64,000 bases of DNA from Planctomycetota bacterium. GTDB lineage: Bacteria > Planctomycetota > UBA8108 > UBA1146. The stretch is from contig JAAZXB010000005.1 in the NCBI GenBank assembly GCA_014240375.1, positions 297 to 64,296 of the forward strand, read 5' to 3'. The notes beneath the pieces were generated by a model. It saw nothing but the letters and a program-made list of their open reading frames with translations, had not been told where the DNA came from and ran no database searches. Position 1 is the stretch's first letter. Every line of letters starts with the position of its first letter. Made by a program: the position numbers and the translations under genes. Below are positions 3,404-58,282 of this stretch, piece by piece.

Positions 3404-3538
3404 CGGGGACTCCTTGCTGCAATTTTTGGGCGGGCTCGATGGAAAACAGGCGCGACTCCGAGGGGGAGCCACGCCTGATGATGTCTCATCGAAGGCGAGC
3501 AGGCAAGGGGAGCCTGCCCGCAGTGTCGACCGCTGCGG

Positions 3539-5083: not shown

Positions 5084-5089
5084 GATGGG

Positions 5090-40267: not shown

Positions 40268-41221
40268 ATGTTGGGTGCTTCAGAGGGTCTCCGTTCGCGA
40301 CCACTCGTCGGCCGTCTGGCTCCCAGTCCGACCGGCGTCCTGCACCTGGGGAATGCCCGTTCTTTTCTGCTGGCATGGCTGTCGATTCGCAGCCAGGGGG
40401 GCCAGTTGTGGCTACGGATCGAGGACATCGACGGTCCTCGAGTTCGATCGGGGGCCATCGAGAGCACCATCGAGGACTTGCAGTGGCTGGGGCTCGACTG
40501 GGACGGGGAGGTCCAGATCCAGAGTGATCGGCTGCCGCGTCATCAGCAGTGGATCGACACGCTGATCGAAGAGGGACTCGCCTATCCCTGTGTCTGTACC
40601 CGAAGTGAGGTGGAAGAGGCTGCCACCGCGCCGCATGAATCGATCGGCGTCGATGCTCCGGTATACCCCGGGAGTTGCCGGGGGCGCTGGAGCAGCGAGC
40701 AGCAGGCGACCGAGGAAACGGGTCGAGACTGTGCCATCCGCCTGGCGGTGAGTGAGGACGCCATCGCCTTCGAGGATCGTTTCGCGGGGCGCTGTGAAGG
40801 GCGGCTCCACGGCGATTTCGTGATACGCAAGCGCGATGGAACTCCCGCATACCAGTTGGCGGTGGTGGTGGATGATCTCGACTCCGGGGTCACCGAGGTG
40901 CTTCGAGCGGACGATTTACTCCCATCGACACCGCGTCAGATGTTGATCTATCGTCATCTGGGGGCTGAATCACCCGATTTCATCCATGTCCCGCTGGTCG
41001 TTGGGCCCGATGGTAGGCGGCTGGCCAAGCGCCACGGCGATACCAGTCTGACGCGCTATCGTCGGGAGGGGATCTCTCCTGAGGAGATCATCGGAGCACT
41101 GGCTCATGGCAGCGGGTGGGTCGAACAGGGAACTCGATGTCGAGCGGAAGATTTGCTCGCTCGATTTGATCTGTCGAGCCTCCCGATCGAACCGATGATC
41201 TGGTCCGATGAGCTGGTTTGA
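40268..41221 (+). CDS. gluQ: Glutamyl-Q tRNA(Asp) synthetase (truncated GluRS paralog, YadB-like)
   Basis: ~317 aa; LAPSPTGVLHLGNARS (HIGH region); lacks the anticodon-binding domain. Confidence 0.85.
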   Translation: MLGASEGLRSRPLVGRLAPSPTGVLHLGNARSFLLAWLSIRSQGGQLWLRIEDIDGPRVRSGAIESTIEDLQWLGLDWDGEVQIQSDRLPRHQQWIDTLIEEGLAYPCVCTRSEVEEAATAPHESIGVDAPVYPGSCRGRWSSEQQATEETGRDCAIRLAVSEDAIAFEDRFAGRCEGRLHGDFVIRKRDGTPAYQLAVVVDDLDSGVTEVLRADDLLPSTPRQMLIYRHLGAESPDFIHVPLVVGPDGRRLAKRHGDTSLTRYRREGISPEEIIGALAHGSGWVEQGTRCRAEDLLARFDLSSLPIEPMIWSDELV

Positions 41222-41400
41222 TGAGCGACTCAATTGAGCGCTGACTCAAAAGGGGCATTGAACTTTTTTTGACGATCCGGCATAGTTTGAGAGTCCCGGT
41301 CTGCCGCACCGGGATCTGGTTACTGGAGTCCTCTCGGATGAGATCTGTGCTTCGCCGTAGGCTGACGGAATCCTACTTCTCGACCATCTGTACTGCTGGG

Positions 41401-41535
41401 GTCCGTAATTCTACGGTCCGCGATTCCACGCTTCCCAATTCGATACCCCGCAATTCGATACCCCGCAATTCGATACACCGCAATTCGATACACCGTGATT
41501 CCATGCACCGTGATTCCATGCACCGTGATTCAGAG
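41401..41535. repeat. Tandem repeat array, 15-nt period (~9 units: ccccgcaattcgata x~4, caccgtgattccatg x3)
   Basis: Read directly; sits at the extreme 5' end of, or just upstream of, the CHAT-TPR gene. Confidence 0.85.
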
Positions 41536-43764
41536 GTCTGCTCATCCGAGCCACGATGCACTCGAGTCGGCCAGTGGCTCCCGCTCGATTCGACCGCCAC
41601 CGCAGCGATAGGGCTGCCCCTTCTCATCCTGTGCCTCGCCCTGTTTTTCTTTCCTTGCGGGAGTGCGGCGCAGATCAACGATCTGATCCTGCTCGAGGGG
41701 AGACTGTCGACCAGTCGTCCACTGATGGATACCGATGTACTGGCGATCGCCCTGCCCCCTTCCGCCGTGTGGCGGCACGTCGAGGTGCTACTGGTCAGTG
41801 ATGGCATCGAGGTGTCTCTCACCACTGCCGATGTCGATGGGCAAGAGCGACACCTGAGGTTTTCCGATCAGGAACTTTTCGGACCCGATCCGGGTCGTTT
41901 CTCCGGAGGAGAACTGCTGGTCCGCATCACCGAATCAGGGCAGCAAGCGATTCCTCATCGGATGGCTTCCGCTGTCGATCCCGCGCCTTGGTATCCCCAT
42001 GGCGCCACTCCCCAGGATGTTCTGGAGCGTGCAGCGAGGAAGTTGAAGGAGGGGCTGACGAAGAAGGCCGCCGAGGACTTGCTGACGCTTCGAGATACCG
42101 CGCTGGTGCCGGCACTCTCATCGGAAAGGATGAGATTGAATGCATCGGTGCAGCAAGCCTATTCGGATGTCAGTTCGATCCACGGTCGCACCGCAGAACA
42201 GTTACTCGAGTCTGCAGTTCTTCGCGCACCCGCAGGATCATCGACCAGAGAAAAAGTGCTGATCGATCAAGCGGCTCAGAACATTCGTAAAGCGACGTTT
42301 TCATCCGATCGAGAGACCTGGAGGAGCGAACTGACCGAGGCGTTGTCACGGGCGCGGTTGGCTCTGTCATCGGCACGTGAACTCGACCATCGAGACAATG
42401 CGGCGGCAGCATTGCTGGAGATTGCTGCTGCGGCTTCATGGCGCGGTTGGGCACTGGAAACTCGTGCAGCGACCGAAGCTGCGCTGGATCTGGCGGGCGA
42501 TCCCGATACCCGCTGGAGGTGTGCACTGGCATTGGCTCGCTCTCACATGGTAACGGGGAAACTGTCCGAGGCGGTCACCGAGGCTCGTGAGGCCCTCTCC
42601 ATCGTCGAACAGATCCGTGGGAGTCGCCACGACGATGCGGCAGCGATGGGTCTGCGTCGACAGCCAGCGATCTTGCTGGCAGACATCGAATCTCGCAGAG
42701 GCGATGCGCTCTCTTCCTTGATCGCCGCCGAGAAGATCCGGGTTCGAAGCAGCGGCGCCACGCCGATCGATCGAGCGGCACTGGAAAAACTGGCCCGCGA
42801 TGCTCAGGGGCTGGCCACGGTAGTCGTGGCGCTCGACGCAGGAACGGTGCTGTTGGTCTGGTCCACCGTCGGCGGAGAGTGGCAGCACCGGCGGATCGAT
42901 CAGCGCCGAGGAGAGGCGATCGAGCGTGGGATGGCACTGCATCACTCTCGAGGAGCGAATGTCGAGGCAGCCGACTGGCTCTCGAAGCGGCTCTTTCCCG
43001 CGGCCCTGAATCCATGCGATCGTTTGCTGCTGGCCCCGATCGGTGGATTGCGAAGAATTCCCTGGGGCATCCTCACCATCGATGGGGAAGCACTGGTCGA
43101 TCGCTGCAGCTGGAGTCTGTTGCCGGGACTCGGCAGCGGGCCGCGAGCCCTCGAACCGTTACCGAGGGAGGGGTGGTGGACGGTGGTAGATCCGTGGGTC
43201 CCCGATCGATCTCGATTGCCTGGATCCAGGGCGGAAGGGGAGCGGATCCAGGATCGTTTTCCGGCGGTCGAGTTGCGCTCAGGAGAAGCGGCGACGGTGG
43301 CCGCGGTGGAGCAAGCGGCGACGGTCGCAAAGGTGCTCCACATCGCCTGTCATGGAGACTTCCAGCCCTACGACCCAGGCGGGTCGAATCTGCGACTGAG
43401 CCCTGCCGGCGAGTCCGATGGAGTGCTCACTGCCGATCAGTTGTCGCGGATGGAACTGATCGATTGTCGGCTGCTGGCGCTGACCGGATGTGAGACCGCT
43501 TTGGGTTCGGCGAGCGGCGCCGACGACCTGGCGGGATTCCCGCGGGCGGCGCTCGAAGCGGGGTGTCAGGCGATTTTGGGGACGCTTTGGCCGGTCGAGG
43601 ACGCCTCGGCAGGTAGATTTCTTGGATCGCTGGTGGCAGCCACGGATGGCCAGGTAGAGCCCGCAGAGGTGCTCAGGCGGGCATGTAGGGCCAGAAGAGG
43701 AGATCCGAGGGATCGCGATCCTGGCGCCTGGAGTGGCTGGGTTCTGGTTGAGAATGGCTGGTAA
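41518..43764 (+). CDS. TPR + CHAT (caspase-HetF-like peptidase) domain protein, secreted/periplasmic
   Basis: Hydrophobic signal (LPLLILCLALFFFPCGSAAQ); C-terminal VLHIACHGDF...LLALTGCETALG are the CHAT His/Cys catalytic dyad regions. Start ambiguous (ATG 41503/41518 inside the repeat array; ORF opens at 41269). Confidence 0.7.
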   Translation: MHRDSEVCSSEPRCTRVGQWLPLDSTATAAIGLPLLILCLALFFFPCGSAAQINDLILLEGRLSTSRPLMDTDVLAIALPPSAVWRHVEVLLVSDGIEVSLTTADVDGQERHLRFSDQELFGPDPGRFSGGELLVRITESGQQAIPHRMASAVDPAPWYPHGATPQDVLERAARKLKEGLTKKAAEDLLTLRDTALVPALSSERMRLNASVQQAYSDVSSIHGRTAEQLLESAVLRAPAGSSTREKVLIDQAAQNIRKATFSSDRETWRSELTEALSRARLALSSARELDHRDNAAAALLEIAAAASWRGWALETRAATEAALDLAGDPDTRWRCALALARSHMVTGKLSEAVTEAREALSIVEQIRGSRHDDAAAMGLRRQPAILLADIESRRGDALSSLIAAEKIRVRSSGATPIDRAALEKLARDAQGLATVVVALDAGTVLLVWSTVGGEWQHRRIDQRRGEAIERGMALHHSRGANVEAADWLSKRLFPAALNPCDRLLLAPIGGLRRIPWGILTIDGEALVDRCSWSLLPGLGSGPRALEPLPREGWWTVVDPWVPDRSRLPGSRAEGERIQDRFPAVELRSGEAATVAAVEQAATVAKVLHIACHGDFQPYDPGGSNLRLSPAGESDGVLTADQLSRMELIDCRLLALTGCETALGSASGADDLAGFPRAALEAGCQAILGTLWPVEDASAGRFLGSLVAATDGQVEPAEVLRRACRARRGDPRDRDPGAWSGWVLVENGW

Positions 43765-43813
43765 TGAGCCGATAATCTTCGATTGCCCTCAGGGCGACTC
43801 CGCGCCACTACCG

Positions 43814-46453
43814 ATGGGTGGTGGAGACGCAGTGGAACTGGCGAGATCGGACATTGGCGGGCGGGGAATCTGCGTCGGGAACGTAAATCGGGGAACCGAG
43901 CGGGGGCTTCAGACGCTAAGCCACCTCAAGAGTGCGAAAGAGGTTTGGATCGATGAGTTGGAGAATGGGAAAGGTGATGCAATCCTGAAGCATGTAAGGG
44001 GCCACTGGCCCCTCTGGCCACTGTTGTTTCTATTCGTGATGTCGCCAGGATTCGGCGTGAACTCGTCGCATCCTGGGTCGGGTACGCTGATCGCTCAGGT
44101 GCCCAATCTGACCTTCGTCGAGTTGTTTCATGTGAATGCAGAGGAAGTGCTGCAATTCCTCCGTGGAGTTCCGGGACTTACCGCTCAAGTCGAAAATGGT
44201 GAGGTGGCGATGGTTCCCAATCGCTCTCAGTCGTTGCTCGTCACGGCGGATCCACCGACTACCGAGGCGTTGATCCGGATCATCCGGGATTTCGAGAACC
44301 TGGAGGTCAGGGATCGCCTGATCGAAAAATCGATCACCATCCGTTATGCCGGAATTCAACTGGTACTCGAGACGCTGGCGGCGGGCAAGATCTGCCAGGT
44401 GTACCATCGAACCGAGGAAGTGAAGAACGACTCGACCAAGCAAGGAAATCGGACCATCACACGGACCTACAAGAAGGCGGTCTATGCCCGCTATGAGGCC
44501 GCCAGCGAGACGGTCCTGCCTTCGTGGAGTTTGCCGGAGTACCCCTACATTCTCGAGATTCCTCACGTCGATCCGGTCGAATTGCCGCCGGTGAATCTCG
44601 GCAGTGGAATCGACGAAGCGGCACTCTCCCTCACCTTCAAGGATTCGCCCTCGACAGAAGCGCGCAATCGATTGCTGGTCGTCGGAACCGAGAAGGACAT
44701 CGCTAGAATCCAGAAATTCATCGATCAGATAGATATCCCTGCACGGCAGATCATGATCGAGGTTCAGATCATCGAACTGGAAGCCGATTCCCTGACAGAT
44801 CTGGGAATCGACATGCTCGCCTACGAAAAACGTCACGCGGTGATCGACTTCGCCTCACCGCTCCCTGGCGACCCGATGCCCCAGGTCGGTGAAAACTTCA
44901 ATCCGATCGAGCAAGCGGGGTTGTCATTCCTCTTTGATGACACCACTGAACGCCTTTCCGCCCAGTTCCTTGCCGGAGTCCATGCACTGGTGCGCAAGGG
45001 AGATGCCATCATCAAGGCACGCCCGAAGTTGTACGCACTCGACGATCGTCAGAGCCAGCTTCACCTGGGAGAAAAAATTCCGACCTTTGTCTCCACCGAT
45101 GTCGTGCGAAATTCGAACGGCAGCAATTTCGTCGAGAATATCAACAAGGTGGGGACCGAGCACATCGGGACCACCCTGGTGGTGAAGCCGAGGATCAGCG
45201 GTCCCGACGAGAATGAAGTCTCGATGCTGATCGATATCACCGTCAATAACTTGCAGGGACGACAGCGTGTTTTCGAGGAGGACCTGCTCGGAATTCCAGA
45301 GATTGCCATCCGGAATTTCCGGGGACAGGCCAGGGTCAAGAATCACAGGCCACTGATCCTCGGAGGCCTGATCAAGGAGAGTGAGTTTGAGTCCCGCAAC
45401 AAGATGCCACTGATCGGAGACATCCCGTTTCTCGGTGACCTCCTGGGTCGCAGGAACTCGCAACAGATTCGCTCCGAGATCATCATCGTGTTGACTCCTC
45501 ACATCCTCAGCGAGGATGGCATCGATCCGATTTCGACTCCCAAGGAGAGTAGCCACTTCGACACCTTCAACAGCGTGCTCTTCAACGACCGATACATCCT
45601 CAAGGGACGTGACCTGGTCGGACTGGATCCGATCAGCAGGACGCCGGTGGAGGGGTTCTCCAGCGATGAGGTGATCGACCTGACGCTGTTGAACATCGTC
45701 AAGAAGCGTGAACTGGTCAGTCGGTTGAAGATCTTTGAAGACTACCTTCCAGAATCGGCTGGAACGCTCAGTGCATTCAAGAGGAAGCATCCCGAGAAGT
45801 CGATTCGCACCTGGAGTGTCGAGGAGCGGCAACTGTTCTTCCAGGCGGCTGCAATCCTGGTCGAAAACATCAAGAGCCTCAATCCAGGGCTCGACTATGA
45901 CGACGTGGTCTCTCCGCGGCGTGAAATCGTGGTGCCGACCAGTCCGTACCATGTCAGCCTCTCCTACGACAAGTTGAAGACCTTTTATGACAAGGGAGAC
46001 CTGGTGGTGTTTCGTGGCGAGACCAACCTGTCGGAGGGTACGATTCGTAATCTGGAACAGATCTACACTCGCTCCTTCGAGGAGTTTGCCTCCTTCCTCG
46101 AGTTGATCGGTCGTACCGACCAGCAACATGGTGAGTTCCGTGGCATTCTCGAACAGCAAAGAAGCCTCCTCTTCCCCTCTGCGGAGCCGGCACAGGAACT
46201 GACTTATGGCGATCTGTTCAGGGATCTTGACCGACATGGTCTCGATTTCATCAGTGTTGCGACCTTCCTCGCTAACCGTCTCCAACAGGCAGTTTCCGAC
46301 GGTGAAGTTCCGCTGGGTGTGCTCGAGGATGACCTGGAATCATTCAGGAACAGAACGGTCACCCTCGATGAACTGGGAGATCGCCTGCAGACCCTCGACG
46401 AGCGCTGGGATTTCCTCAACAATTCACCGTTACGACCAGTCAGGGGGCTGTGA
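43814..46453 (+). CDS. Secretin-family outer-membrane channel protein (T2SS/T4P GspD/PilQ-like) with ~300-aa C-terminal extension
   Basis: Central ...RPLILGGLIKESEFESRNKMPLIGDIPFLGDLLGRR...IIIVLTPHIL is the secretin signature. It is followed by ~300 further residues with no recognisable motif. Overlaps the CHAT gene end; start uncertain (ORF opens at 43733). Confidence 0.7.
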   Translation: MGGGDAVELARSDIGGRGICVGNVNRGTERGLQTLSHLKSAKEVWIDELENGKGDAILKHVRGHWPLWPLLFLFVMSPGFGVNSSHPGSGTLIAQVPNLTFVELFHVNAEEVLQFLRGVPGLTAQVENGEVAMVPNRSQSLLVTADPPTTEALIRIIRDFENLEVRDRLIEKSITIRYAGIQLVLETLAAGKICQVYHRTEEVKNDSTKQGNRTITRTYKKAVYARYEAASETVLPSWSLPEYPYILEIPHVDPVELPPVNLGSGIDEAALSLTFKDSPSTEARNRLLVVGTEKDIARIQKFIDQIDIPARQIMIEVQIIELEADSLTDLGIDMLAYEKRHAVIDFASPLPGDPMPQVGENFNPIEQAGLSFLFDDTTERLSAQFLAGVHALVRKGDAIIKARPKLYALDDRQSQLHLGEKIPTFVSTDVVRNSNGSNFVENINKVGTEHIGTTLVVKPRISGPDENEVSMLIDITVNNLQGRQRVFEEDLLGIPEIAIRNFRGQARVKNHRPLILGGLIKESEFESRNKMPLIGDIPFLGDLLGRRNSQQIRSEIIIVLTPHILSEDGIDPISTPKESSHFDTFNSVLFNDRYILKGRDLVGLDPISRTPVEGFSSDEVIDLTLLNIVKKRELVSRLKIFEDYLPESAGTLSAFKRKHPEKSIRTWSVEERQLFFQAAAILVENIKSLNPGLDYDDVVSPRREIVVPTSPYHVSLSYDKLKTFYDKGDLVVFRGETNLSEGTIRNLEQIYTRSFEEFASFLELIGRTDQQHGEFRGILEQQRSLLFPSAEPAQELTYGDLFRDLDRHGLDFISVATFLANRLQQAVSDGEVPLGVLEDDLESFRNRTVTLDELGDRLQTLDERWDFLNNSPLRPVRGL

Positions 46454-47274
46454 TGAGGTCGCTATCCTTCGGGGATTCACCCCTGGTCAAGCAGCTGCTT
46501 GGCACTGTAATGGCGACCTTGACCGTCAGTTTGATGGTCCTTGGCTCCGGCTGCAAACCGATCGACAAGAGGAGTGCAGAGGCCGATGTCTTGAAGGATA
46601 TTCGCGACACGACGGTGATCCCTGACCTCGGATCTTACGACGAAGCGATCCGCAAGAAGTCGGTGAGTCGCATCTTGATGAGCCTGCAGAAGGCGCCCGA
46701 TATCACCCGCAATCTGTTGCTGGCGACCATCGATGATTCGATGGTCAGCGCCCGCACCAAGAGAGTGATCTGTACACTGCTGGCGGACCTGGGGGATTTG
46801 CGCGCGATGGCCCCCTTGACCCGGATGCTGGCGGAGGGATCTCAAGCTGAAGATGACCTGCTCGAGACGGCACTGCTCGAGTTCGGGGAACGTGCAGTGT
46901 CGGGAGTCTCGACGGTGCTGGCTGAAGGGGGACCGATTGCACGGCGCAACGCCGCGGGAATCTTGCTCGGCATCGGTGGCTCCAGTGCTCACGACGCACT
47001 GCGCATGAGACTACGGATCGAGAAGGACCCTGAAGTGCGATTTCTCTGTGTCTGCGGGTTGGTCGAGGATCGTCGAACAACCTCGCTGGCACTCCTGGGA
47101 GAGGCTCTCGACGACATCGATGAAGAGGTCAGAAGAGCGGCATGGGGTGGGTTGTCTCGTCGAGCCCGTCCTCCCGGGGCGATCCTCTTCAACCCTTCTG
47201 GACTTCCTGAGGTGAGAATTCGTCAGGCGCTACAGGTGCGAAAATGGCTCGAAGTCGGGTCAGTGCCACTCTAG
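46450..47274 (+). CDS. HEAT/PBS-lyase-repeat lipoprotein
   Basis: Lipobox LGSGC; repeated ...ALGxLGDxRAxxPL... HEAT-like units; ATGA overlap with the secretin gene. Confidence 0.7.
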   Translation: MMRSLSFGDSPLVKQLLGTVMATLTVSLMVLGSGCKPIDKRSAEADVLKDIRDTTVIPDLGSYDEAIRKKSVSRILMSLQKAPDITRNLLLATIDDSMVSARTKRVICTLLADLGDLRAMAPLTRMLAEGSQAEDDLLETALLEFGERAVSGVSTVLAEGGPIARRNAAGILLGIGGSSAHDALRMRLRIEKDPEVRFLCVCGLVEDRRTTSLALLGEALDDIDEEVRRAAWGGLSRRARPPGAILFNPSGLPEVRIRQALQVRKWLEVGSVPL

Positions 47275-47330
47275 TGCGGGGGTAGTGCCATTCTGGTGCG
47301 GGGCAGTTCCATCGATGGATTCAGTCACGA

Positions 47331-47390: not shown

Positions 47391-48422
47391 TCAGACTTGA
47401 GACTCTTGCTCTTCGATGAACTCCTGCCAGAAATCTTCCGGCATGTCGAGCGCAATCTTGAGAGCTCCGTTGGAACCTGCGTACTGCGGCTCCTCGACCG
47501 ACTTCACTTTTCCTCCACCGTACTCGACGAGGGCTTCCTCGAAGGCTCGGCAGAGTCCGGTGATCTGGCTGCCGCCGCCGCCCAGCAGGATGTGATTGCG
47601 CATCTTCTGCTGGAATTCCGGGTCGTAGGTGGCGATCAGATCTTGCAGCGCTTCGACGGTGGGGGCGACGATACCGGAGCACGCCTCGCTCACCTCGGCA
47701 GTGATGTCAAACTCGGTCGGCTTTCCCTGGACCGGGAAGGTCGCCACGACCGGATCCATGTGGGTTCCGACACAAGCGTGATCTTCCTTGATCTCGCGCA
47801 CCATGTTGGAGGAAAACTGTGCCTCCGGGTGGTTTTCGGTCAGCAACTCGGTCAATCGGGTGTCGATGGCATCTCCACCGAAGTGGTGAGTTCGTTGATC
47901 CTCAGCCTTCGGCATCGTGGCATGGACCCGGCACAGATCGACGGTTCCAGCACCGATATCGACGACCAGGGTATCGGAGAGGAAATCGAGGCCGTAGGCC
48001 ACCGAGAACGGTTCCGAGCAGACCACGATGCTATCCATGAATTCGGAAGCGGCAGCGAGGATATGAGCCTTGGAGTCGACGCTGGCCTCGGCGGGGGCTC
48101 CGATCACACCGTAGATGGTGCTCCCGGTGGGGATCTCCGCCTGTTCGATGACGTACTCGATCAGGTCTCTGACGGCGTGCCGGGATTTCTCATCATCCTG
48201 GATCACTCCCTTGTCGAGGGGGCGAACCAGATCGACCGCCATCCGGTTCTGCACCGCTTCTTCACCGAACACCTTGTCACGACCACCGAGGTGCTTGCGA
48301 CTGACATGATCCTGGGCATATCCGACGTAAGACCAGACGGTGGTCCGGACCCCTGTCGAAGTGGTGATGGAAGTGCGGCTGGTGCCGAGGTCCATTCCAA
48401 TGTAAACGATATCGCTCATCAC
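47391..48422 (-). CDS. MamK-like actin-family ATPase
   Basis: IGMDLGTSRTSI (phosphate-1), VRPLDKGVI, VCSEPFSVAYGLD...VVDIGAGTVDLC (phosphate-2), LLGGGGSQITGL (adenosine). Block-by-block resemblance to magnetosome MamK rather than MreB/FtsA/ParM, from recalled MamK sequence. Confidence 0.8.
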   Translation of the reverse strand: MMSDIVYIGMDLGTSRTSITTSTGVRTTVWSYVGYAQDHVSRKHLGGRDKVFGEEAVQNRMAVDLVRPLDKGVIQDDEKSRHAVRDLIEYVIEQAEIPTGSTIYGVIGAPAEASVDSKAHILAAASEFMDSIVVCSEPFSVAYGLDFLSDTLVVDIGAGTVDLCRVHATMPKAEDQRTHHFGGDAIDTRLTELLTENHPEAQFSSNMVREIKEDHACVGTHMDPVVATFPVQGKPTEFDITAEVSEACSGIVAPTVEALQDLIATYDPEFQQKMRNHILLGGGGSQITGLCRAFEEALVEYGGGKVKSVEEPQYAGSNGALKIALDMPEDFWQEFIEEQESQV

Positions 48423-48453: not shown

Positions 48454-49605
48454 TCAGGCGTGATCCTTCTCGGTCTTCTGTGAGTTTGTTCTTGTCGCGG
48501 AGATTTTGCTCCTCAATTCCTTGTTCTCTTGCACCAGTTCCAGCAGCAGTGATTGGCGCACCCCATGATTGGAGTCGTCGCCGCTACTGGCCTTGACCCG
48601 GTCGCCTCCCGCCCCCTTGAATCCCTGAGTCCGGTCTTTCGACTCGGCGCGGCGGGCGTTCTCGCGCGCGTGGTCCCGATCTTTTCTGGCATCGTCCAGG
48701 CTATGCGCGAGACGGTGTATCTTTCTTTCGAGCAACTGGATGTTCTCGTTGCGAGCACCCTCTTCTTGAATACGGGTTCGCTCCCGCTCCGAGTCGAGAG
48801 ATCGTTCCATCGCTTCGCGGAGCTTCTCCTCGAGCGGCGCCGCAACTGTTCCCGATTCGACCGCCGCATCGATCACCGAGCCCAGTTTCGATTCGAGTTC
48901 GATCATCGCCCCTTCGGAAAGGGTAAACTGATCTCGCTCGACTTCGCGATTTTTTTCGCGCCCCAGCAAGTTCTGGGCTCGATCCAGTCTGCTGGATAGG
49001 CCCTGCACATGCGACTGGAGATCTGCCTTCTCGCTCTCGAACTCGGCGAGTTTCTCGCGGAAGCCCTTCTCGGACTCCTTGAGCAGGCGCTGGATCTCAT
49101 TCTCATCGTGGGAGAGCCCACTCTCTCGCACCACATCCTCGACCGCATCCTGGATCAAATCCTTGATGGCGGACAGATTCAGCACGCGGACGCTATCGCG
49201 CTGCGCTGCGATGGCTGCAGTTCTCACCAGCCTCGAGCGGGAACGGAGGGCCGATTCGAGATCGGAGTGCCCTTCACCGGAGGGGGCCCCCGAGAAGAGG
49301 CGATCGAGGGCTTCGAGTTCACGTGGATGCGCAGGTTTCCAGCGCAGCAGCACTCCGGCAGAGGTGCGGGTGACCACCTCGGCGTGAATCAACTCGGCTT
49401 GGCCATCGGGGCGCTCGACGATCAGTTCGAACCGATCTCCGATACGGAGCCGGATGGTGGTTTCCAGTAAGACTTCTCGGCCGTCGATCCGTGCCACCGG
49501 GAGACGAAGGATGCCCGCTTCCAGTTCGGCTACGACGCTCCAGCGTCCAGAACCGGCAGGAACTTTCGAGGTGGTCTGTTCCGGCAAGAGGTATCCGATC
49601 TTCAC
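48454..49605 (-). CDS. Long coiled-coil protein with N-terminal beta-rich (possibly PilZ-like) domain; partner of MamK-like actin
   Basis: 383 aa; residues ~110-380 are highly charged heptad-like (ERERTRIQEEGARNENIQLLERKIHRLAHS...); ends 31 nt upstream of the actin gene on the same strand. Confidence 0.65.
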   Translation of the reverse strand: MKIGYLLPEQTTSKVPAGSGRWSVVAELEAGILRLPVARIDGREVLLETTIRLRIGDRFELIVERPDGQAELIHAEVVTRTSAGVLLRWKPAHPRELEALDRLFSGAPSGEGHSDLESALRSRSRLVRTAAIAAQRDSVRVLNLSAIKDLIQDAVEDVVRESGLSHDENEIQRLLKESEKGFREKLAEFESEKADLQSHVQGLSSRLDRAQNLLGREKNREVERDQFTLSEGAMIELESKLGSVIDAAVESGTVAAPLEEKLREAMERSLDSERERTRIQEEGARNENIQLLERKIHRLAHSLDDARKDRDHARENARRAESKDRTQGFKGAGGDRVKASSGDDSNHGVRQSLLLELVQENKELRSKISATRTNSQKTEKDHA

Positions 49606-49819
49606 CTGGCGGGGATCAGTGGGGTCGATTCATCCAGGTCTCATCATCGAGCCATCGAGAATCGGGCAACAGAGAAGGCTATCGGGAAGCGTGGTTTCCT
49701 GCAAGGTGAGGGGGCGTGAAACGTTGCTCAGCGCCTGGATTCCGGGATTTGTTGCCGGAACCGGATCGCAGTCTGGAGCGTCTACCTGTGGAGAACCCGA
49801 CCGGTTGAAAATCCCCTGG

Positions 49820-50728
49820 ATGAAGCCGATCGGGTCTGCCGAAGCGATCCATGTCGGTCTGATGGACATCGGTACCTCAACATGGGATGCTGTCGAAGTT
49901 GGAGAACCGATGCCACCTAGTACCATGCTCCTGCTGATTCTCGCCTCGGTCCACGGGCTCCCCGTCGACGTGATCCCCGGCACCGAACCCTCTCGTGCTG
50001 GATCGATCCCCCTGGGCAAGGTGTTCTATTCGCCTCAAAGCGGCGAAGTACAGGTCGATGGAGTGCTCAATCTCAATCGTGGTTTTGTCGAGTATGTCGC
50101 CTGCACTGCGGGAGTGAAGCCGCACGAGACGCTGGTCAGCCTCGATTGTGATCCGGCGGATCTACAGGGGGTACTGTTGCTGCTGGGTCTGACCAATTCG
50201 CGACGTCCCGAATCGGAGTACGATCTGGGCCCCCTCAGTGGAGGGGATCGAGTGATCTTGTCGCTCAGATTTCAGGTGTTAGATGGAGAGGGGCGAAAGC
50301 GTCTCCGGACCATCCGGGTCGAGAATTGCCTGATCAATGCTCCGATGGAGAGATCGATGGCGCGCTGTGGATTCAGTTTCACCGGATCGGGATTCCAGTG
50401 GCTCGATCCGCCCCCAGGGGCCCCTGAAGGAGCGGCGCCAAAAGAGCATTTCATGGCCCGGGTCACGGGAGAACTGGTCGCCCTCAGCCACCGGCCGTGG
50501 GCGATTCTCGACAATCCGCTGGCGTTGCCCTATCCAGACGGCGATTATTTTGCATATTCGGATGTTCTTCCCCAGCATCGAAGGGATGATCCACCTGCGG
50601 TCACATTGTTGCTACGCCGCGCAGTGGCGGGAGATGTGGACCCGAAAGCGATCCGGATGGAACTGCCTCCTCGGCCGTTGAACCCGGACACCGAGGCACC
50701 AGTTCGTGAGGGGGAGGGAGGACGATGA
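49820..50728 (+). CDS. Hypothetical protein
   Basis: Internal ATG start chosen (MKPIGSAE...); the upstream part of ORF 49454 overlaps the start of the divergent gene. No recognisable motif. ATGA overlap with the next gene. Confidence 0.45.
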   Translation: MKPIGSAEAIHVGLMDIGTSTWDAVEVGEPMPPSTMLLLILASVHGLPVDVIPGTEPSRAGSIPLGKVFYSPQSGEVQVDGVLNLNRGFVEYVACTAGVKPHETLVSLDCDPADLQGVLLLLGLTNSRRPESEYDLGPLSGGDRVILSLRFQVLDGEGRKRLRTIRVENCLINAPMERSMARCGFSFTGSGFQWLDPPPGAPEGAAPKEHFMARVTGELVALSHRPWAILDNPLALPYPDGDYFAYSDVLPQHRRDDPPAVTLLLRRAVAGDVDPKAIRMELPPRPLNPDTEAPVREGEGGR

Positions 50729-51990
50729 TGTCAAGTGTTCTCAGTGCCCCAGTGTTGGCACCCGCAGACGGCTCCATGGCAACTCGGATGATCCTGTTCA
50801 TGGCACTCTTGCTGGGGCTACTCACCCCGTCGATGCAGGCCCATCCGCTGCACCAGAAAGTTCAAGATGATGAGCAGCGGGCACCACTCGATCGGGCCAC
50901 TCTCAAGGGGGTCATCGACAAGGGTGCCAACTGGATCATCGATTCGCAGCGACCCGATGGGTCGTGGGGATCCCATGCCGGCGATCCCGGAATCACTGCG
51001 ATGGCATTGAAAGCGCTGGTCGATTCTCCCCGTGCCTACCGTGAGGAAGATGGCCCCTTCATCAGTGCCGCAGTCCAATCCCTACTGTCGCTTCAGCAAT
51101 CGGATGGTGGAGTGTATGTGCCGGACCAGGGGCTGATGAACTACAAGACATCGGTGACGCTGCTGGCATTGACCGCTCTCGATGCGGGTCGAAAGAAACC
51201 GCGCTATCTGTCACAGGTGGCGCGCATGCGAGATTACATCTCGGGTCTCCAGTGCTCGGATCAATCCACTCCGGTTCCCTACGATCCCACCACCCATATC
51301 AGTTCCTGGGGGGGGATCGGTTACGGTAGTGATCGCCGTCCCGATCTCAGCAACACCCAGCTGGCGCTGGAAGCGCTGACGGCAGCGGGCCTGTCCGAGG
51401 ACTCGGAAGTGTGGAAACGTGCAGCGCAGTTCATCTCACGCTGCCAGAATCGCCAGAGCAGCAACGATGCCCTCGCTGCAGCCCAGAAGACCTCGACCGA
51501 AGATGGGGGATTTTATTATCATCCGGATGAATCGAAGGCGGGATTGGTGACCCACGAGGATGGCAGCCAGTCCTTCTCCTCCTACGGATCGATGACCTAT
51601 GCGGCCGTGAAATCGATGATCTATGCCGGCTTGAAGAAAGATGACCCGAGAATTGCGGCTGCGTTCTCGTGGATCCGTAATCACTGGAGCGTCGAAGAGA
51701 ACCCAGGCATGGCGACCCCGGAAAATCCGGATCGTGGTCAGATGGGGTATTTCTACTACCTGGCAGTGATGGCTCGAGCTCTCCAGGTGCTCGAGGTCGA
51801 GACGGTGACTGACGCCACGGGACAAGAGCATCTGTGGGCCCAGGAGTTGGCCGCTGTTCTCATCCAGAGACAGAACCCGGACGGCTCCTGGTCCAATCCC
51901 ATCGATCGCTGGTGGGAAGGGGACCCGGTCCTCGCCACCTCATATGCCCTACAAGCGCTGAACATCTGTTACCAAACGATGGAGGACTGA
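50725..51990 (+). CDS. Secreted prenyltransferase/squalene-oxidase (terpenoid cyclase-like) repeat protein
   Basis: Signal peptide; repeated QxxDGSWG-type units (QRPDGSWGSHAGD, QQSDGGVY, QNPDGSWSNPIDRWWEGDPVLATSYALQAL). Confidence 0.75.
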   Translation: MMSSVLSAPVLAPADGSMATRMILFMALLLGLLTPSMQAHPLHQKVQDDEQRAPLDRATLKGVIDKGANWIIDSQRPDGSWGSHAGDPGITAMALKALVDSPRAYREEDGPFISAAVQSLLSLQQSDGGVYVPDQGLMNYKTSVTLLALTALDAGRKKPRYLSQVARMRDYISGLQCSDQSTPVPYDPTTHISSWGGIGYGSDRRPDLSNTQLALEALTAAGLSEDSEVWKRAAQFISRCQNRQSSNDALAAAQKTSTEDGGFYYHPDESKAGLVTHEDGSQSFSSYGSMTYAAVKSMIYAGLKKDDPRIAAAFSWIRNHWSVEENPGMATPENPDRGQMGYFYYLAVMARALQVLEVETVTDATGQEHLWAQELAAVLIQRQNPDGSWSNPIDRWWEGDPVLATSYALQALNICYQTMED

Positions 51991-54703: not shown

Positions 54704-54985
54704 AATTGCGGGATTCTCGCCATAGTTGTCCTTTTCCGAGTTTATTCGATCCGCTGGGGCCACTGGCTGGAAATCCTACCAAAAGGGTCCAGATCAGGTT
54801 TCCTGGTGTTGAGTAGAGTCTATTGAATCAGGATATGCGGTGATATGATGGGGTGGTGTCTGCTTGGCCTGAGACGGCGTATACCGGTGTGTGTCTACCC
54901 GGCGCCTTTGATTTTAGTCGGCCTACCTATTTTCAAAAGGAAGAATTGGGTTCCTCGGTTGGGGGCCAGGTCTTTCAGGAGGAAC

Positions 54986-57900
54986 ATGATGTCTTTGATT
55001 TGTCGAGCGACAGTTTTTGTCGCTGTGTTTTCGATGCTTCTTGGAGCAACGATTCAACTGGCTGCCCAAGGGGGACCGGATGTGATTGTTGGTGATTTGC
55101 CGTCGACCAACTCATACGGTACCAATACCGTTGCCGGTGAGGTGATTTACGCCTATTCGCTGGCGACCACTTCATGCAACATCGGAACCGAGAACCTGGC
55201 ATGGGAGGCGAACAATAACCAGCATCCTGTGATCGCTCAGGACATGTGGCGTTTACAAGGTGGTCGTATCAGCCAGATCGGGACGGCATGGCTGAAGCAC
55301 GGTTTTTGCGCCTTGCAGAATACCGGCCTTTGTCCGGGTTGTGGTGGTGGCGGTGGGTGCCTCGCATTTCTCACCCCGGGTTGCGCGGATCCATATTCTG
55401 CCGGACTCAACGGAAACCAGGGCAATATGGGCCCTCGCTCTCAGGTCAACGCCTTCAACGGCTTTTTCCCTTACCCGTACTCTGCTCCGCCGATTCCAGC
55501 CGGGCAGGCAACCATCGGCAGAAGATTACAGGCCACAGGCGATGATCTATCGTTGGCCAGCTTTCCGGGGGCTCTCTACTTTATCAGCGGCCTCTATGTA
55601 GCTCAAGACGATGCAGCCTTTGGCAATCAAGCAAACAACGCTTCTTATCGTCAGGTGTCCGTTTCCCAGACTGGGAATCGTCCGCTCTCCTTCATCGGAG
55701 GCACCCAGATGATGTCGCCTCCAATTCAGGCGTGGCAGGACTTTCAACCGAGCGTGACTCTTGTCGATGTTCAGGTTCCCAACGAGGGACTTTTCATCGC
55801 GGGTTACGATGTCATCGACAATGGTGACGGAACCTGGAACTACGAGTATGCGGTATACAACCTGTACTCGGATCGCTCAGCCAATAGCTTCTCGATTCCT
55901 TTCCCCGGTGGAGCTACCGTGATCAGTAGTGGTTTTCATGACATCGGCTGGCACTCTGGCGAGCCTCATTCGGGTGTCGATTGGGAGGTCAGCGTTACTC
56001 CAGGAGTCGAAATTTCCTGGTCCGCGGAAACTTTTGCCGACAACCCAGATGCGAACGCACTGCGCTGGTCAACGATGTACAACTTCTACTTCACCAGCAA
56101 TGCACCGCCGGCGCTGAATACCGCAACCCTGGGCATTTTCAAGCCGGTCGCGGGGCAGCCTGATTCGGTCGATTTCAGTGTTCTGGCACCGAGTGGAAAC
56201 TTCATTCCCGGAGTGGAGAATCTGGCCTGTGCCCAGGTAGGCGAACAAGTCGACCTGAGCTGGACCAATGGTGATGTTTACGATGCCATCGAAGTGGCCC
56301 GTGATGGTGTTCTTCAAGCGACATTAGCCGGAAGTTCGTTGTCCTGGACCGATCCGAATCCCACTCCTGGTGCTCATGTATATGCCGTCAATGGAGCGAT
56401 TGCTGGTGTTCCGACCGGGCCGGTCAGTTGCAATGTCACGGTGACCGCTGCCTTGAGTATCTCGGTTCCTGGTGGCGATCCTTCCGTTTTCAATCCACTG
56501 GGAGGAGAGACCTTTGACGTGGTGATCACTCCCGCCGCTGGTTCCGCTGTGCAAGCGGGCAGCGAGTGGCTTCGCATCGATACGGGAGTCACCATCCAGT
56601 CGATACCTTTGGTTTTCGTCGGTGGGCTCGACTACCAGATGACCTTTCCACCGTTGAGCTGCGGAAGTGAATTCGGCTGGTGGATCGAGGCTCAGAGTGC
56701 TTCGGGCCAGCTGGTGAGTTACCCCGAAGGGGGATCCTCGGCACCGGTCGTGGGGCTCTCTGCTTTTGGTGTCACCTTTGATGTCACAGATTTCGAGATC
56801 GATTCCGGATGGACGGTAGGGGCACCCAATGATGCGACCACCGGAATCTGGACCCGCACCGATCCGATCGGATCTCTCGCTCAACCAGAAGATGACCACA
56901 GTGATCCGGGAACCCAGTGCTGGTTCACTGGCCAGGGTGCAGTGGGAGGCTCTCTCGGTGCCAACGATGTAGATGGAGGTTCGACCACCCTCTACTCGCA
57001 GGTGATGGATCTGACTTCCTCCACCAACCCACAGGTCAGCTACTTCCGCTGGTACTCCAATGACAGTGGTGCTTCTCCATCCGCAGATGTTTTCGTTGTG
57101 CAAGTTTCCGATGATCAGTCCACCTGGATTGATGTCGAGACGGTAGGACCCGGTGGAACCGGAACCTCTGGCGGATGGATCGAGCACAGCTTCCTGGTCG
57201 CAGATTTCGTTCTGTTGAGCGGGAACGTACAGGTTCGCTTCATTGCCAGCGATCTCGGATCGGGATCGATCGTGGAGGCGGGGATCGATGATTTCCGCTA
57301 CGAGGATGTCGATTGTTCAGGGATCACCGACTGCAACCTGAATGGCGTGCCAGATTCCCAGGACATCGCCAACGGAACCAGCAACGACTGTGATATCGAT
57401 GGTTTCCCGGATGAATGTACGACTGCCGACGGTTCCGTTGCGGATTGCAATGGAAACAGCGTTCCCGATATCTGCGATGTGGCGACCGGAACTGAAGATT
57501 GCGATCAAGATGGAACGCCCGATAGTTGCGAAGTCGACACCGATGGGGACGGCCAGATTGATGATTGCGATGCGGATCTGGATGGCGATGGGATTCCCAA
57601 TGTTTGTGATATTGATCAGACCACGGGAGTCGATTGCGATGCCAATGGCCAGATCGATTCGTGCGATCTGGCGGCAGGGGCTGCGGATTGCGATTTCGAT
57701 GGGCAAATCGACAGTTGTCAGATCAGTGCCGACCGATCGACAGACTGTGATCTGAGCGGAATCCTGGATTCTTGCGAGATTGCCAGCGGTGTCGCAGTGG
57801 ATTGCAATGCCAATGGCACACCCGATGATTGCGAGATCGCCGCCGATCCGACCATCGATTGCGATGCCAGCGGCGCACTCGATTCATGTGAGATATCCAG

Positions 57901-58282
57901 TGGAACGGTTGCCGATTGCAATGGAAACGGAACTCCAGACTCCTGTGACATCGCTTCCGGAACCAGCGCCGACGCAGACGCAAATGGAGAACCGGATGAG
58001 TGTGCAGTACAGGACTGGATCCGCGGAGACATCAATGTCGATGGAAGTCATGACATCAGTGATGCCGTGGCGAGCCTCGAGTACCTGTTCGGAAACGGAA
58101 CAGTACTGTGTCAAGCCACCGTCGATGTCAACGACGACGACTCGATGAATGTAGCGGATACGGTGTTTCTGCTGGGTTACATGTTTTCCAGTGGGGCGTC
58201 GCCTGCGGCTCCATTCCCCGCTTGCGGACAGGATCCTGCAGGAACCACGCTGCCGTGCGATTCATTCCCGCTGTGCCCATAG
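54986..58282 (+). CDS. Large secreted protein with thrombospondin-type-3-like repeats and C-terminal dockerin module
   Basis: Start at MMSLICRATVFVAVFSMLLGATIQLAAQG (AGGAGG SD); C-terminal third is DCNxNGxPDxCD repeats ending DINVDGSHDISDAVASLEYLF...DVNDDDSMNVADTVFLLGYMF. Confidence 0.8.
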   Translation: MMSLICRATVFVAVFSMLLGATIQLAAQGGPDVIVGDLPSTNSYGTNTVAGEVIYAYSLATTSCNIGTENLAWEANNNQHPVIAQDMWRLQGGRISQIGTAWLKHGFCALQNTGLCPGCGGGGGCLAFLTPGCADPYSAGLNGNQGNMGPRSQVNAFNGFFPYPYSAPPIPAGQATIGRRLQATGDDLSLASFPGALYFISGLYVAQDDAAFGNQANNASYRQVSVSQTGNRPLSFIGGTQMMSPPIQAWQDFQPSVTLVDVQVPNEGLFIAGYDVIDNGDGTWNYEYAVYNLYSDRSANSFSIPFPGGATVISSGFHDIGWHSGEPHSGVDWEVSVTPGVEISWSAETFADNPDANALRWSTMYNFYFTSNAPPALNTATLGIFKPVAGQPDSVDFSVLAPSGNFIPGVENLACAQVGEQVDLSWTNGDVYDAIEVARDGVLQATLAGSSLSWTDPNPTPGAHVYAVNGAIAGVPTGPVSCNVTVTAALSISVPGGDPSVFNPLGGETFDVVITPAAGSAVQAGSEWLRIDTGVTIQSIPLVFVGGLDYQMTFPPLSCGSEFGWWIEAQSASGQLVSYPEGGSSAPVVGLSAFGVTFDVTDFEIDSGWTVGAPNDATTGIWTRTDPIGSLAQPEDDHSDPGTQCWFTGQGAVGGSLGANDVDGGSTTLYSQVMDLTSSTNPQVSYFRWYSNDSGASPSADVFVVQVSDDQSTWIDVETVGPGGTGTSGGWIEHSFLVADFVLLSGNVQVRFIASDLGSGSIVEAGIDDFRYEDVDCSGITDCNLNGVPDSQDIANGTSNDCDIDGFPDECTTADGSVADCNGNSVPDICDVATGTEDCDQDGTPDSCEVDTDGDGQIDDCDADLDGDGIPNVCDIDQTTGVDCDANGQIDSCDLAAGAADCDFDGQIDSCQISADRSTDCDLSGILDSCEIASGVAVDCNANGTPDDCEIAADPTIDCDASGALDSCEISSGTVADCNGNGTPDSCDIASGTSADADANGEPDECAVQDWIRGDINVDGSHDISDAVASLEYLFGNGTVLCQATVDVNDDDSMNVADTVFLLGYMFSSGASPAAPFPACGQDPAGTTLPCDSFPLCP

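Follow-up and report, generated by a model that had tools for sequence, protein, structure and literature searches.

Secretins are the outer-membrane gates of type II and type III secretion systems (T2SS, T3SS), type IV pili (T4P), Tad pili and filamentous phage, and all those known to us work with an inner-membrane motor. What role, then, could a secretin have when its gene lies between those of a CHAT (caspase-like) protease and a HEAT-repeat lipoprotein? Three such open reading frames (ORFs) share the plus strand in the region 41401-47274 of a planctomycete sequence, the whole 64-kb stretch of which is called the window here (Table 1). In all the genomes of related uncultured planctomycetes that were examined the genes are found together, and they therefore apparently make up one undescribed envelope machine. 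The trio thus appears to be a new cell-envelope module, whose function we infer below.

Table 1. Features of the CHAT-secretin-HEAT region, in window coordinates.
Feature	Position	Strand	Details
15-bp tandem repeat, 6 copies, CAATTCGATACACCG-like	41436..41525	+	5′ end of CHAT gene (TRF)
TPR-CHAT protease gene	41518..43764	+	748 aa from ATG 41518; alternative start 41503
N-terminal signal peptide or signal anchor	to ~41670	+	TPR-CHAT protein
Beta-sandwich	41728-41979	+	TPR-CHAT protein
TPR-like helical solenoid	42010-42732	+	TPR-CHAT protein
CHAT caspase-fold domain	42772-43752	+	TPR-CHAT protein
Catalytic His codon (HIAC-H-G)	43351..43353	+	translation; invariant in ortholog alignment
Catalytic Cys codon (LTG-C-ET)	43489..43491	+	translation; invariant in ortholog alignment
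Sigma-70-like promoter element, TTGAGA-17 nt-GATAAT	43748..43776	+	straddles CHAT stop codon; consensus scan and cross-locus conservation
Secretin gene	43958..46453	+	831 aa from probable start TTG 43958
Secretin signal peptide	to 44095	+	start inferred from orthologs
Two ring-building N domains, no N0	44099-44752	+	secretin gene
Secretin core	44753-45508	+	secretin gene
Post-barrel segment, motif DP-STPKES-HFDT-NSVLFNDRY-LKGRD	45509..45607	+	aa 593-625 of long ORF
Helical C-terminal domain, ~280 aa, unrecognized fold	45608..46450	+	structure model
HEAT-repeat lipoprotein gene	46450..47274	+	274 aa; start GTG 46450 or ATG 46453
Lipobox Cys codon	46552-46554	+	HEAT lipoprotein gene
21/22-bp tandem repeat	47256..47312	+	across HEAT stop codon and downstream spacer (TRF)

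Order and strand of the trio are strictly kept in 51 species-level loci from Planctomycetota metagenome-assembled genomes. The CHAT gene lies 5′ of the secretin gene in 48 of 48 loci with upstream DNA, the HEAT gene is immediately 3′ of it in 50 of 50 informative loci, and this synteny spans secretin identities from 96% down to 39%. Because the arrangement recurs in every one of the 51 loci having flanking DNA, the association is far beyond chance, and a fortuitous adjacency of the three genes can be rejected. An initial reading made from the sequence alone (hereafter the sequence-only reading) had proposed that synteny be examined in related genomes; the pairing that it named as contrary evidence, obvious T2SS or T4P clients together with loss of synteny, was not found.

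The flanks of the trio, inspected over 64 kb at the window locus and ~6-10 kb per side elsewhere, are unrelated between loci, and no fourth gene is universally conserved among the 51. A MamK-like neighbor was considered as a further component and rejected because its presence at only ~21 loci reflects clade-level synteny; in the window, the gene upstream of CHAT encodes a GluQ-RS-like synthetase. Each species-representative genome yielded one locus, over the breadth of a deep clade and in surroundings of housekeeping genes (tRNA synthetases, SHMT, release factor), and inheritance of the module looks vertical. The nearest outgroup secretins tested (P0061 in L005 and L006, P0179 in L058) have neither CHAT nor HEAT neighbors, and the module is so far confined to uncultured Planctomycetota.

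Genes for a conventional secretin-dependent machine are missing from these neighborhoods. A Pfam search of all window ORFs of at least 180 aa revealed no T2SS or T4P ATPase, platform or pseudopilin genes, and the prepilin motif is absent from every window ORF of at least 60 aa, which extends to 64 kb the earlier remark that no such ATPase or pseudopilin genes are adjacent. Likewise, no T2SS, T4P or Tad genes are present in the flanks of the 51 loci. No NCBIfam model claims any of the three proteins, and PADLOC-DB 2.0 places none of them in a defense system, with partial domain-level matches to BovA (32.8 bits over the CHAT core) and HEAT-ARM (23 bits) and none for the secretin. There is no Rfam match in or around the module. 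The literature searched, including that on orphan or stand-alone secretins and on crateriform structures with secretins, holds no CHAT-secretin link and no description of the module. These results agree with the sequence-only reading, which recognized no described system and pictured a stand-alone channel coupled to a periplasmic caspase-like protease; "stand-alone" applies to the neighborhoods (64 kb here, ~6-10 kb per side elsewhere).

The first gene had been drawn from 41401, where there is no start codon; it probably begins at ATG 41503 or ATG 41518. Both candidates fall inside or after the 15-bp tandem repeat, in its last units, and the repeat is present in 4.5, 2.8 and 5.1 copies in the near relatives L007-L009. 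The CHAT domain occupies residues 567-827 of the ORF 41269..43764 (Pfam PF12770, E 6.7e-41, 141.1 bits against a gathering score of 24), and an intact His-Cys dyad in 50 of 50 CHAT orthologs supports the prediction that the protein is an active protease. N-terminal signal sequences occur in all CHAT orthologs aligned, and predicted export to the periplasm is likewise supported. The caspase-like protein with a signal-like segment described in the sequence-only reading is real. The tetratricopeptide repeats (TPRs) ascribed to it give a weak sequence signal (TPR_10, E 0.018) but a clear TPR-like helical solenoid in the AlphaFold2 model (pLDDT 86.8, pTM 0.80). Foldseek matches this model to Csx29 (E 1e-15), then to the periplasmic TPR-CHAT domain of DdvA (E 8e-15, TMq 0.51), its second-best structural match, and to separase (E 3e-11).

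The CHAT protein is evolving much faster than the secretin (41% versus 72%; ~29% over the CHAT domain alone versus 41%), and the length of its N-terminal part is variable, with N-terminal modules that range between 682 and 1116 aa. A word-indexed search returned only 6 close relatives and a profile query returned generic TPR-CHAT proteins; distant orthologs were taken from secretin-bearing loci rather than from the CHAT profile search.

DdvA is a periplasmic TPR-CHAT anti-sigma factor that controls a CBASS-CRISPR island, and Csx29 and separase are proteases whose activity is switched allosterically and directed at a single substrate or a very small number (PMC11506125). The window protein shares with DdvA its periplasmic TPR-CHAT region, separase/craspase architecture and canonical His-Cys dyad, and for three of the four nearest TPR-CHAT relatives outside the family, the gene directly follows one for an ECF sigma or zf-HC2 anti-sigma factor. 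However, it lacks the cytoplasmic zinc-binding anti-sigma (ZAS) domain (no zf-HC2 by Pfam) and, in the window's clade, carries an extra N-terminal beta-sandwich. Its neighbors are a secretin and a lipoprotein, with no sigma factor gene adjacent to CHAT in the window or in four annotated loci. A DdvA-like anti-sigma role was rejected on the missing ZAS domain and the lack of a nearby sigma gene. Csx29 and separase have the same overall TPR-plus-CHAT fold but are cytoplasmic; the craspase Csx29 model NF041237 gives 20 bits against a cut-off of 300, and the window holds no cas or CRISPR genes.

The ~30-nt overlap previously described between the CHAT and secretin genes is an artifact, 32 nt long, that arose because the longest ORF (43733..46453) was taken. 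Secretin orthologs have a length of ~828 aa, and in the long ORF some 90 residues precede the signal peptide; translation probably starts at TTG 43958, giving 831 aa, with predicted signal cleavage between LIA and QVP at 44095/44096. From that start, the spacer behind CHAT is 193 nt. The false N-terminal extension looks conserved because it contains the CHAT C-terminus in another frame and a conserved −10-like box. The box belongs to a sigma-70-like element: of the 30 closer-clade loci printed, roughly 27 by visual count have CCGATAAT or a one-base variant beside the CHAT stop, and the DNA downstream of it diverges among loci. Consensus scanning for promoters and terminators gave counts no higher than in shuffled sequence, so that the junction site alone is at chance level; it gained weight because of its conservation across loci, not from the scan. 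As a candidate internal promoter, it may serve the secretin and HEAT genes, which suggests that CHAT and the secretin may be separately expressible.

Within the long ORF, Secretin_N maps to residues 309-339 and the Secretin domain PF00263 to residues 418-592 (E 4.3e-32, 111.5 bits against a gathering score of 27.5). The family profile matches the GspD, PilQ, InvG, pIV and RcpA structures in the PDB, the matches to GspD, PilQ and InvG being limited to the N3 domain and core. Similarity is greatest to GspD (PDB 6i1x, E 1e-27; TIGR02517, E 8e-43), although the TIGR02517 score of 146.9 bits falls far short of the cut-off of 351.35. The same is true of PilQ (TIGR02515, 103.6 versus 284), MshL (97.5 versus 250), HofQ (62.9 versus 554) and the T3SS secretin SctC (TIGR02516, 110.9 versus 238.45). 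Of the PDB matches, that to the RcpA structure is weakest (E 6e-9), and with no BON match and no tad genes nearby the protein lacks the marks of Tad RcpA/CpaC; "CpaC", the label given by JGI to two of its homologs, is an automatic name. N0 and N1 are considered missing because the TIGR02517 alignment starts at model position 164, and Pfam (including PF21305) and NCBIfam detected no N0, STN, AMIN or BON domain. The secretin is under strong purifying selection.

Distant secretin orthologs (~40% identity) carry an N-terminal lipobox Cys, as do HxcQ-type liposecretins, followed by a 200-400-aa Pro/Ala-rich linker, whereas the window's own clade has a type I signal peptide. Unlike HxcQ, both clades keep a separate lipoprotein gene.

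The sequence-only reading had placed the Secretin domain centrally, ahead of ~300 residues with no recognizable motif. Indeed, ~310 residues (about 314) follow the domain with no Pfam match even at E<0.1, and this extension is conserved in all 45 near-full-length homologs found. The S-domain of T2SS secretins is short, ~50 aa. The window secretin does not end at or near its Secretin domain with at most such an S-domain, but has in its place a tail of unknown fold. At the position of the pilotin-binding S-domain of GspD lies the post-barrel segment, the most conserved stretch of the protein (mean pairwise identity 0.75, 13 of 33 columns invariant). It is extended and of low pLDDT in the monomer model and is likely to be an S-domain-like staple between subunits or to a partner. 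Structure prediction, which had been proposed as a check on the extension, gives an all-helical C-terminal domain (pLDDT 79.9) with 34 invariant alignment columns. Foldseek returns nothing from the PDB for it at E<0.001 (best TM 0.17), and it has no PDB sequence match either. Among the best 150 matches of 1.84e9 proteins, in an exhaustive representative search with the full-length secretin profile rather than the tail, the tail is covered solely by members and fragments of this secretin family.

The third protein contains HEAT_2 (Pfam, E 1.8e-6), so that all three domains put forward for HMM annotation, CHAT, Secretin and HEAT_2, are real. Its lipobox Cys occupies the aligned column in 50 of 52 orthologs and is displaced by 2-3 residues in the other two, and Asp is found at +2 in none of five aligned sequences. 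The lipoprotein character, HEAT repeats and overlap with the secretin gene noted earlier all hold, except that the junction reads GTGATG (overlap GTGA or TGATG) and not literally ATGA. The adjoining 21/22-bp repeat varies in copy number (2.7 in the window, 3.0 in L007, 5.0 in L008). Pilotins or accessory proteins are needed by nearly all secretins (PMC12475490). An outer-membrane-type lipoprotein encoded beside its secretin, as found here, is one mark of the pilotin class, and the HEAT protein is a candidate pilotin or secretin accessory.

Compared with known systems, the window secretin has in common with GspD and its pilotins GspS/AspS the secretin core and a preceding ring-building N3-like domain, and with the GspD, PilQ and RcpA systems an alpha-helical-repeat outer-membrane-type lipoprotein encoded beside it. 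It differs from all of these in its constant CHAT partner and in having no linked ATPase, platform or pseudopilin genes; the gspC-M linkage typical of GspD, with its ATPase and pseudopilins, is found neither in the window nor in the flanks of the 51 loci. The CsgG/CsgE/CsgF system follows a common logic, that of a small self-contained set with a channel, periplasmic or lipoprotein accessories and no linked ATPase, but its protein families are unrelated and the resemblance is conceptual.

Our preferred reading, which we hold tentatively, is that the three genes form a dedicated, self-contained envelope module comprising a gated channel, a pilotin-like lipoprotein and a protease switch; we infer its protein contacts, its substrate, the material transported and the absence of an energizing inner-membrane machine. 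On oligomerizing, the secretin would make a gated channel in the outer membrane; its vestibule on the periplasmic side would be short, with two ring-forming domains and no N0 domain for docking to an inner-membrane platform. The invariant post-barrel segment and helical C-terminal domain could form a crown round the periplasmic side of the barrel. The HEAT lipoprotein, probably coupled to the secretin in translation, would bind this C-terminal region and target or stabilize the multimer in the outer membrane, much as the alpha-solenoid (TPR) lipoproteins PilF/PilW/Tgl serve PilQ and TadD serves RcpA. The TPR-CHAT protein would be a Sec-exported cysteine protease of the separase/craspase/DdvA type that can be switched, is specific for its substrate and does its work in the periplasm. 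Its TPR part would sense a signal, whereupon CHAT would cut a partner that a neighboring gene encodes, be it the lipoprotein, a cargo or the secretin in its tail or linker, and so control assembly or opening of the channel.

DdvA offers a similar logic, with a periplasmic CHAT protein acting on a neighboring membrane partner (PMC11506125). A separate pilotin could be redundant in the distant orthologs because those secretins are lipoproteins themselves, as is the self-piloted HxcQ; the HEAT gene is kept in that clade and therefore may do something else. The promoter-like site between CHAT and secretin also sits uneasily with the preferred reading, and the fast divergence and variable N-terminus of CHAT suit a cargo, or a protein that faces the environment, no less than a regulator. 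An unlikely but more specific form of the preferred reading is an ATPase- and pseudopilus-free secretin in which signal-switched CHAT cuts the C-terminal domain or a HEAT lock, so that a large pore opens or assembles. If true, this would be a protease-gated channel for secretion, uptake or release, with caspase-gasdermin logic operating on a secretin.

The divergence of CHAT is what would be expected if the protease were instead the cargo, and the secretin a dedicated single-substrate exporter that delivers it to the surface or medium to act on proteins outside the cell. Genes for a cargo and its dedicated channel are often neighbors, CHAT carries a Sec signal and variable N-terminal modules, and no other conserved candidate cargo is encoded nearby. 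The logic is akin to that of two-partner secretion or CsgG/E/F. We nonetheless consider export of the protease improbable. No secretin is known to us to transport folded proteins of 75-120 kDa unless an inner-membrane motor drives it, and no such motor is encoded nearby; the secretin is preceded by its own promoter-like element; and the closest relatives of CHAT, DdvA and the sigma- or anti-sigma-linked TPR-CHAT proteins, act on specific partners inside the periplasm.

A motor encoded elsewhere is at the center of another explanation, whereby the secretin serves a dispersed T2SS, type IV pilus or Tad machine with the HEAT protein as its pilotin and CHAT as a maturation or quality-control protease. 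Secretion genes are often dispersed in Planctomycetota, the secretin most resembles GspD (6i1x, TIGR02517), and the trio was searched at the scale of neighborhoods, which leaves room for distant machinery. We doubt this account, since the subfamily scores far below every cut-off, lacks a detectable N0, where GspC or PilP usually docks, and is strictly co-inherited with CHAT and HEAT and not with pilus genes; ATPase, platform and pseudopilin genes lie near none of the 51 loci and nowhere in the window. A suicide or defense device, in which sensing of phage or stress makes the protease sever the tail of the secretin and thereby force open the pore in the manner of caspase and gasdermin, is very unlikely: TPR-CHAT proteases do act in defense (craspase; DdvA with its CBASS-CRISPR island, PMC11506125), the protease is encoded beside a pore-former with a long C-terminal extension and its core matches BovA weakly (33 bits in PADLOC), but no PADLOC system includes these proteins, inheritance among housekeeping genes looks vertical, unlike that of patchy defense islands, and the secretin is strongly constrained.

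This secretin subfamily is set apart in having a CHAT protease and a HEAT lipoprotein as its only constant partners, in lacking a detectable N0 and in carrying a conserved domain of 310 residues whose fold is not recognized. As a set, such traits would broaden ideas of what secretins do and how they are controlled. To our knowledge, DdvA is the sole periplasmic TPR-CHAT protein studied so far, and neither its trigger nor its substrate is known. The module would provide a second functional context for periplasmic TPR-CHAT proteases, with a candidate substrate encoded next door, and it bears on how macromolecules move across the outer membrane in poorly known Planctomycetota of marine and groundwater habitats.

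Three open reading frames on one strand take up the module region (see the table), in a window of ~58% GC whose nearest relatives at the protein level all belong to uncultured marine Planctomycetota MAGs. Pfam places the domains as they were first read: the first frame ends in a CHAT domain (E 6.7e-41), the second has part of a Secretin_N and a complete Secretin domain (E 4.3e-32) in its mid-region, and the third has HEAT_2. Beyond the Secretin domain, ~314 residues match nothing in Pfam, even when the threshold is relaxed to E<0.1.

The gene boundaries differ in part from the sequence-only reading. Position 41401, taken there as the start of the CHAT gene, is no start codon, and the protein most likely begins at ATG 41503 or 41518, inside the final copies of a 15-bp tandem repeat. 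The ~30-nt overlap claimed between the CHAT and secretin genes rests on the longest secretin frame, whose GTG at 43733 shares 32 nt with the CHAT gene. This start is probably wrong, because secretin orthologues are ~828 aa long, the hydrophobic signal sequence is located ~90 residues inside the long frame, and an in-frame TTG at 43958 yields an 831-aa secretin with a normal signal peptide cleaved between LIA and QVP. The same site, between A and Q-V-P, is found again in most secretins of the closer clade. Starting at this TTG, the secretin gene is separated from the CHAT gene by a 193-nt spacer. The overlap of the secretin stop with the HEAT start is present as GTGATG, and the HEAT gene is predicted to be translationally coupled to the secretin gene.

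Across the CHAT stop, the spacer holds TTGAGA-17 nt-GATAAT, which looks like a candidate promoter, internal to the trio, from which the secretin and HEAT genes could be transcribed. Among 30 closer-clade loci listed, roughly 27 (counted by eye) keep the CCGATAAT box, or a variant of it with one base changed, beside the CHAT stop, and the DNA downstream of the box is fully divergent among these loci. The seeming conservation of the false secretin N-terminal extension thus comes from the -10 box and from out-of-frame reading of the CHAT C-terminus.

Tandem repeats of three unit lengths (13, 15 and 21/22 bp) flank the module, and their copy numbers vary between near-identical relatives. The 15-bp array has 6, 4.5, 2.8 and 5.1 copies in the window and its near-identical relatives L007-L009, and the 13-bp array has 2.7 versus 9.4. 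The 15-bp array keeps the CHAT reading frame, so use of an upstream CHAT start would add a variable pentapeptide-repeat N-terminal tail.

Synteny in related genomes, suggested earlier as a check on the module, proved to be conserved. Four distant homologues (41-58% identity), individually inspected, all show CHAT, secretin and HEAT genes in this order on one strand, within entirely different flanks. Scanning a single genome for each GTDB species gave 51 loci. The label is uncultured Planctomycetota for nearly all of them and something else for a few bins, and the names indicate metagenomes from the marine water column, deep water and groundwater. HMMs of the three protein alignments place CHAT directly upstream of the secretin in 48 of 48 loci with upstream DNA, and HEAT directly downstream in 50 of 50. 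Clustering of all flanking frames yielded no fourth gene common to more than about half of the loci; genes shared by up to about half reflect clade-level synteny only. A MamK-like gene convergent with the trio and the frame next to it belong to clusters common to about 20-21 loci. The next-nearest secretins tested (P0061 and P0179) have neither a CHAT nor a HEAT neighbour. Chance adjacency of the trio genes is excluded. The secretin diverges most slowly, followed by HEAT and then CHAT (72%, 55% and 41% identity, for example, at one depth).

Structures of GspD, PilQ, InvG, pIV and RcpA are matched by the secretin family profile over the N3-like domain and barrel only. GspD is also the top NCBIfam model for the window protein, yet at 147 bits it stays short of its cut-off of 351, and the protein falls below the PilQ, SctC, MshL and HofQ cut-offs as well. 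Since the GspD alignment starts at model position 164, N0 and N1 are absent; Pfam finds only Secretin_N-type ring-building repeats in the N-terminal part. Closer-clade secretins have type-I signal peptides. The distant orthologues of ~40% identity (L036-L056; for example P0034, P0037, P0040 and P0043) carry an N-terminal lipobox Cys and, between it and the first N domain, a Pro/Ala-rich low-complexity linker of 200-400 residues, which marks this clade as liposecretins.

The 33 residues right after the barrel are the best-conserved stretch of the secretin, with a mean pairwise identity of 0.75 and 13 invariant positions; the helical remainder of the tail (0.50) also exceeds the N domains (0.44). 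An AlphaFold2 model of the tail, built from a 43-sequence alignment, has about 18 helices (pLDDT 79.9). In it the invariant first segment is extended and of low confidence, as would be expected if it packed on a neighbouring subunit or a partner. Secretin topology places a C-terminal extension towards the periplasm, around the barrel exterior. The earlier impression of an extension without a recognised motif extends to its fold: Foldseek against the PDB returned nothing below E 0.5 (TM at most 0.17), and the family-profile search matched the tail to no solved structure. Within the best 150 matches from an exhaustive profile search across 1.84 billion representative proteins, coverage of the tail is limited to about eight full-length clusters and to fragments.

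A separate group of proteins (P0046-P0064; ~1450 aa, at least one from Phycisphaerales) fuses an ABC exporter to a C-terminal secretin domain, with ABC_membrane at aa 27-296, ABC_tran at aa 365-514 and the secretin at aa ~997-1172. It is very unusual for one chain to combine an ABC transporter of the inner membrane with a secretin of the outer membrane. An assembly artefact is made less likely by the many independent clusters, which agree in length.

The third protein has HEAT repeats and a conserved lipobox Cys, and Asp at position +2 is absent in all five aligned HEAT lipoproteins. Several secretin pilotins and accessory proteins are alpha-solenoid lipoproteins. Nearly all secretins require a pilotin or accessory protein (PMC12475490). 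By analogy, a pilotin-like role would be the most economical inference for the HEAT lipoprotein.

The CHAT protein model (pLDDT 86.8, pTM 0.80) comprises a beta-sandwich, a TPR-like solenoid and the CHAT domain. Its top structural matches in Foldseek include Csx29, the craspase of type III-E CRISPR (E 1e-15), the periplasmic TPR-CHAT domain of the Myxococcus xanthus anti-sigma factor DdvA (E 8e-15, TMq 0.51) and separases. Proteases of these types are inactive at rest and allosterically switched, and for DdvA, trans cleavage of its own linker has been proposed, which would release its sigma factor (PMC11506125). Directly ahead of the TPR-CHAT gene in three of the four nearest non-family relatives lie ECF sigma or zf-HC2 anti-sigma genes, an arrangement resembling the DdvA fusion divided into separate genes. 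This suggests that DdvA-type signalling extends beyond the organisms listed for it, the Myxococcota and one Comamonas species (PMC11506125). Unlike DdvA, the window protein lacks both an anti-sigma domain and an adjacent sigma gene; the same kind of periplasmic sensor-protease is here joined to a secretin and a lipoprotein instead.

Coordinates of features in the window and in related loci
Feature	Location	Strand	Remarks
CHAT, secretin and HEAT open reading frames	window 41269-47274	+	
13-bp tandem repeat	window 41192-41226		
15-bp tandem repeat	window 41436-41525		
21/22-bp tandem repeat	window 47256-47312		
MamK-like actin gene	window 47391-48422	-	386 bits against NCBIfam MamK (cut-off 400); BeeR 217 bits
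Frame next to MamK-like gene	window 48454-49605	-	only a weak DUF4407 match
TraT-like lipoprotein	window 2570-3472	-	glycine-zipper domain
Two multihaem cytochromes (c554/c7-like)	window 3539-6358	-	adjoin TraT-like gene
ECF sigma and zf-HC2 anti-sigma	window 6735-8047		anti-sigma has a weak dockerin-like match
Giant 2315-aa frame	window 23337-30284	-	FG-GAP repeats
YdjY-domain protein, then squalene-hopene-cyclase/prenyltransferase alpha-toroid repeat protein	window 49454-51990	+	all below Pfam cut-offs
1145-aa frame	window 54845-58282		no Pfam or NCBIfam match
PKD-dockerin protein	window 60427-62502		
Non-family TPR-CHATs behind zf-HC2 anti-sigma and/or ECF sigma genes	L061:4901-8514; L062:4007-8982; P0104 locus		
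ABC-secretin fusions	L059:8001-12380; L060:2174-6553		L059 gene follows an OEP/TolC-like, HlyD-like, MacB/FtsX operon

Our preferred reading, which we hold tentatively and at somewhat less than even confidence, is that the trio forms a self-contained gated outer-membrane channel. The secretin would be the channel, the HEAT lipoprotein a docking or assembly factor for its tail, and the CHAT protein a switchable protease that may cut a module component or cargo. A signal-like N-terminus is present in all aligned CHAT orthologues, and the catalytic His and Cys are retained in 50 of 50. Of the two main rivals, one, that the CHAT protein is itself the cargo of the secretin, seems unlikely. The other, in which the secretin belongs to a machine whose genes lie elsewhere, we consider equally doubtful. 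The window bears out the earlier statement that no pilus or T2SS ATPase or pseudopilin genes are adjacent: Pfam, run on every frame of at least 180 aa, found no secretion ATPase, platform or pilin in the 64 kb, and a regular-expression search of frames of at least 60 aa found no prepilin cleavage motif. The frames present include housekeeping enzymes, cytochromes, the MamK-like actin and a sigma/anti-sigma pair 34 kb off. A defence or suicide pore is very improbable, fitting poorly with vertical, housekeeping-embedded inheritance.

No paper linking CHAT domains with secretins was found in the literature searched, and no curated model in NCBIfam or PADLOC names any of the three proteins. We regard the module, whose parts are drawn from known superfamilies, as a new secretin subfamily in which both the domain and the set of partners are new. 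If the protease truly gates the channel, this would be a new secretion principle.
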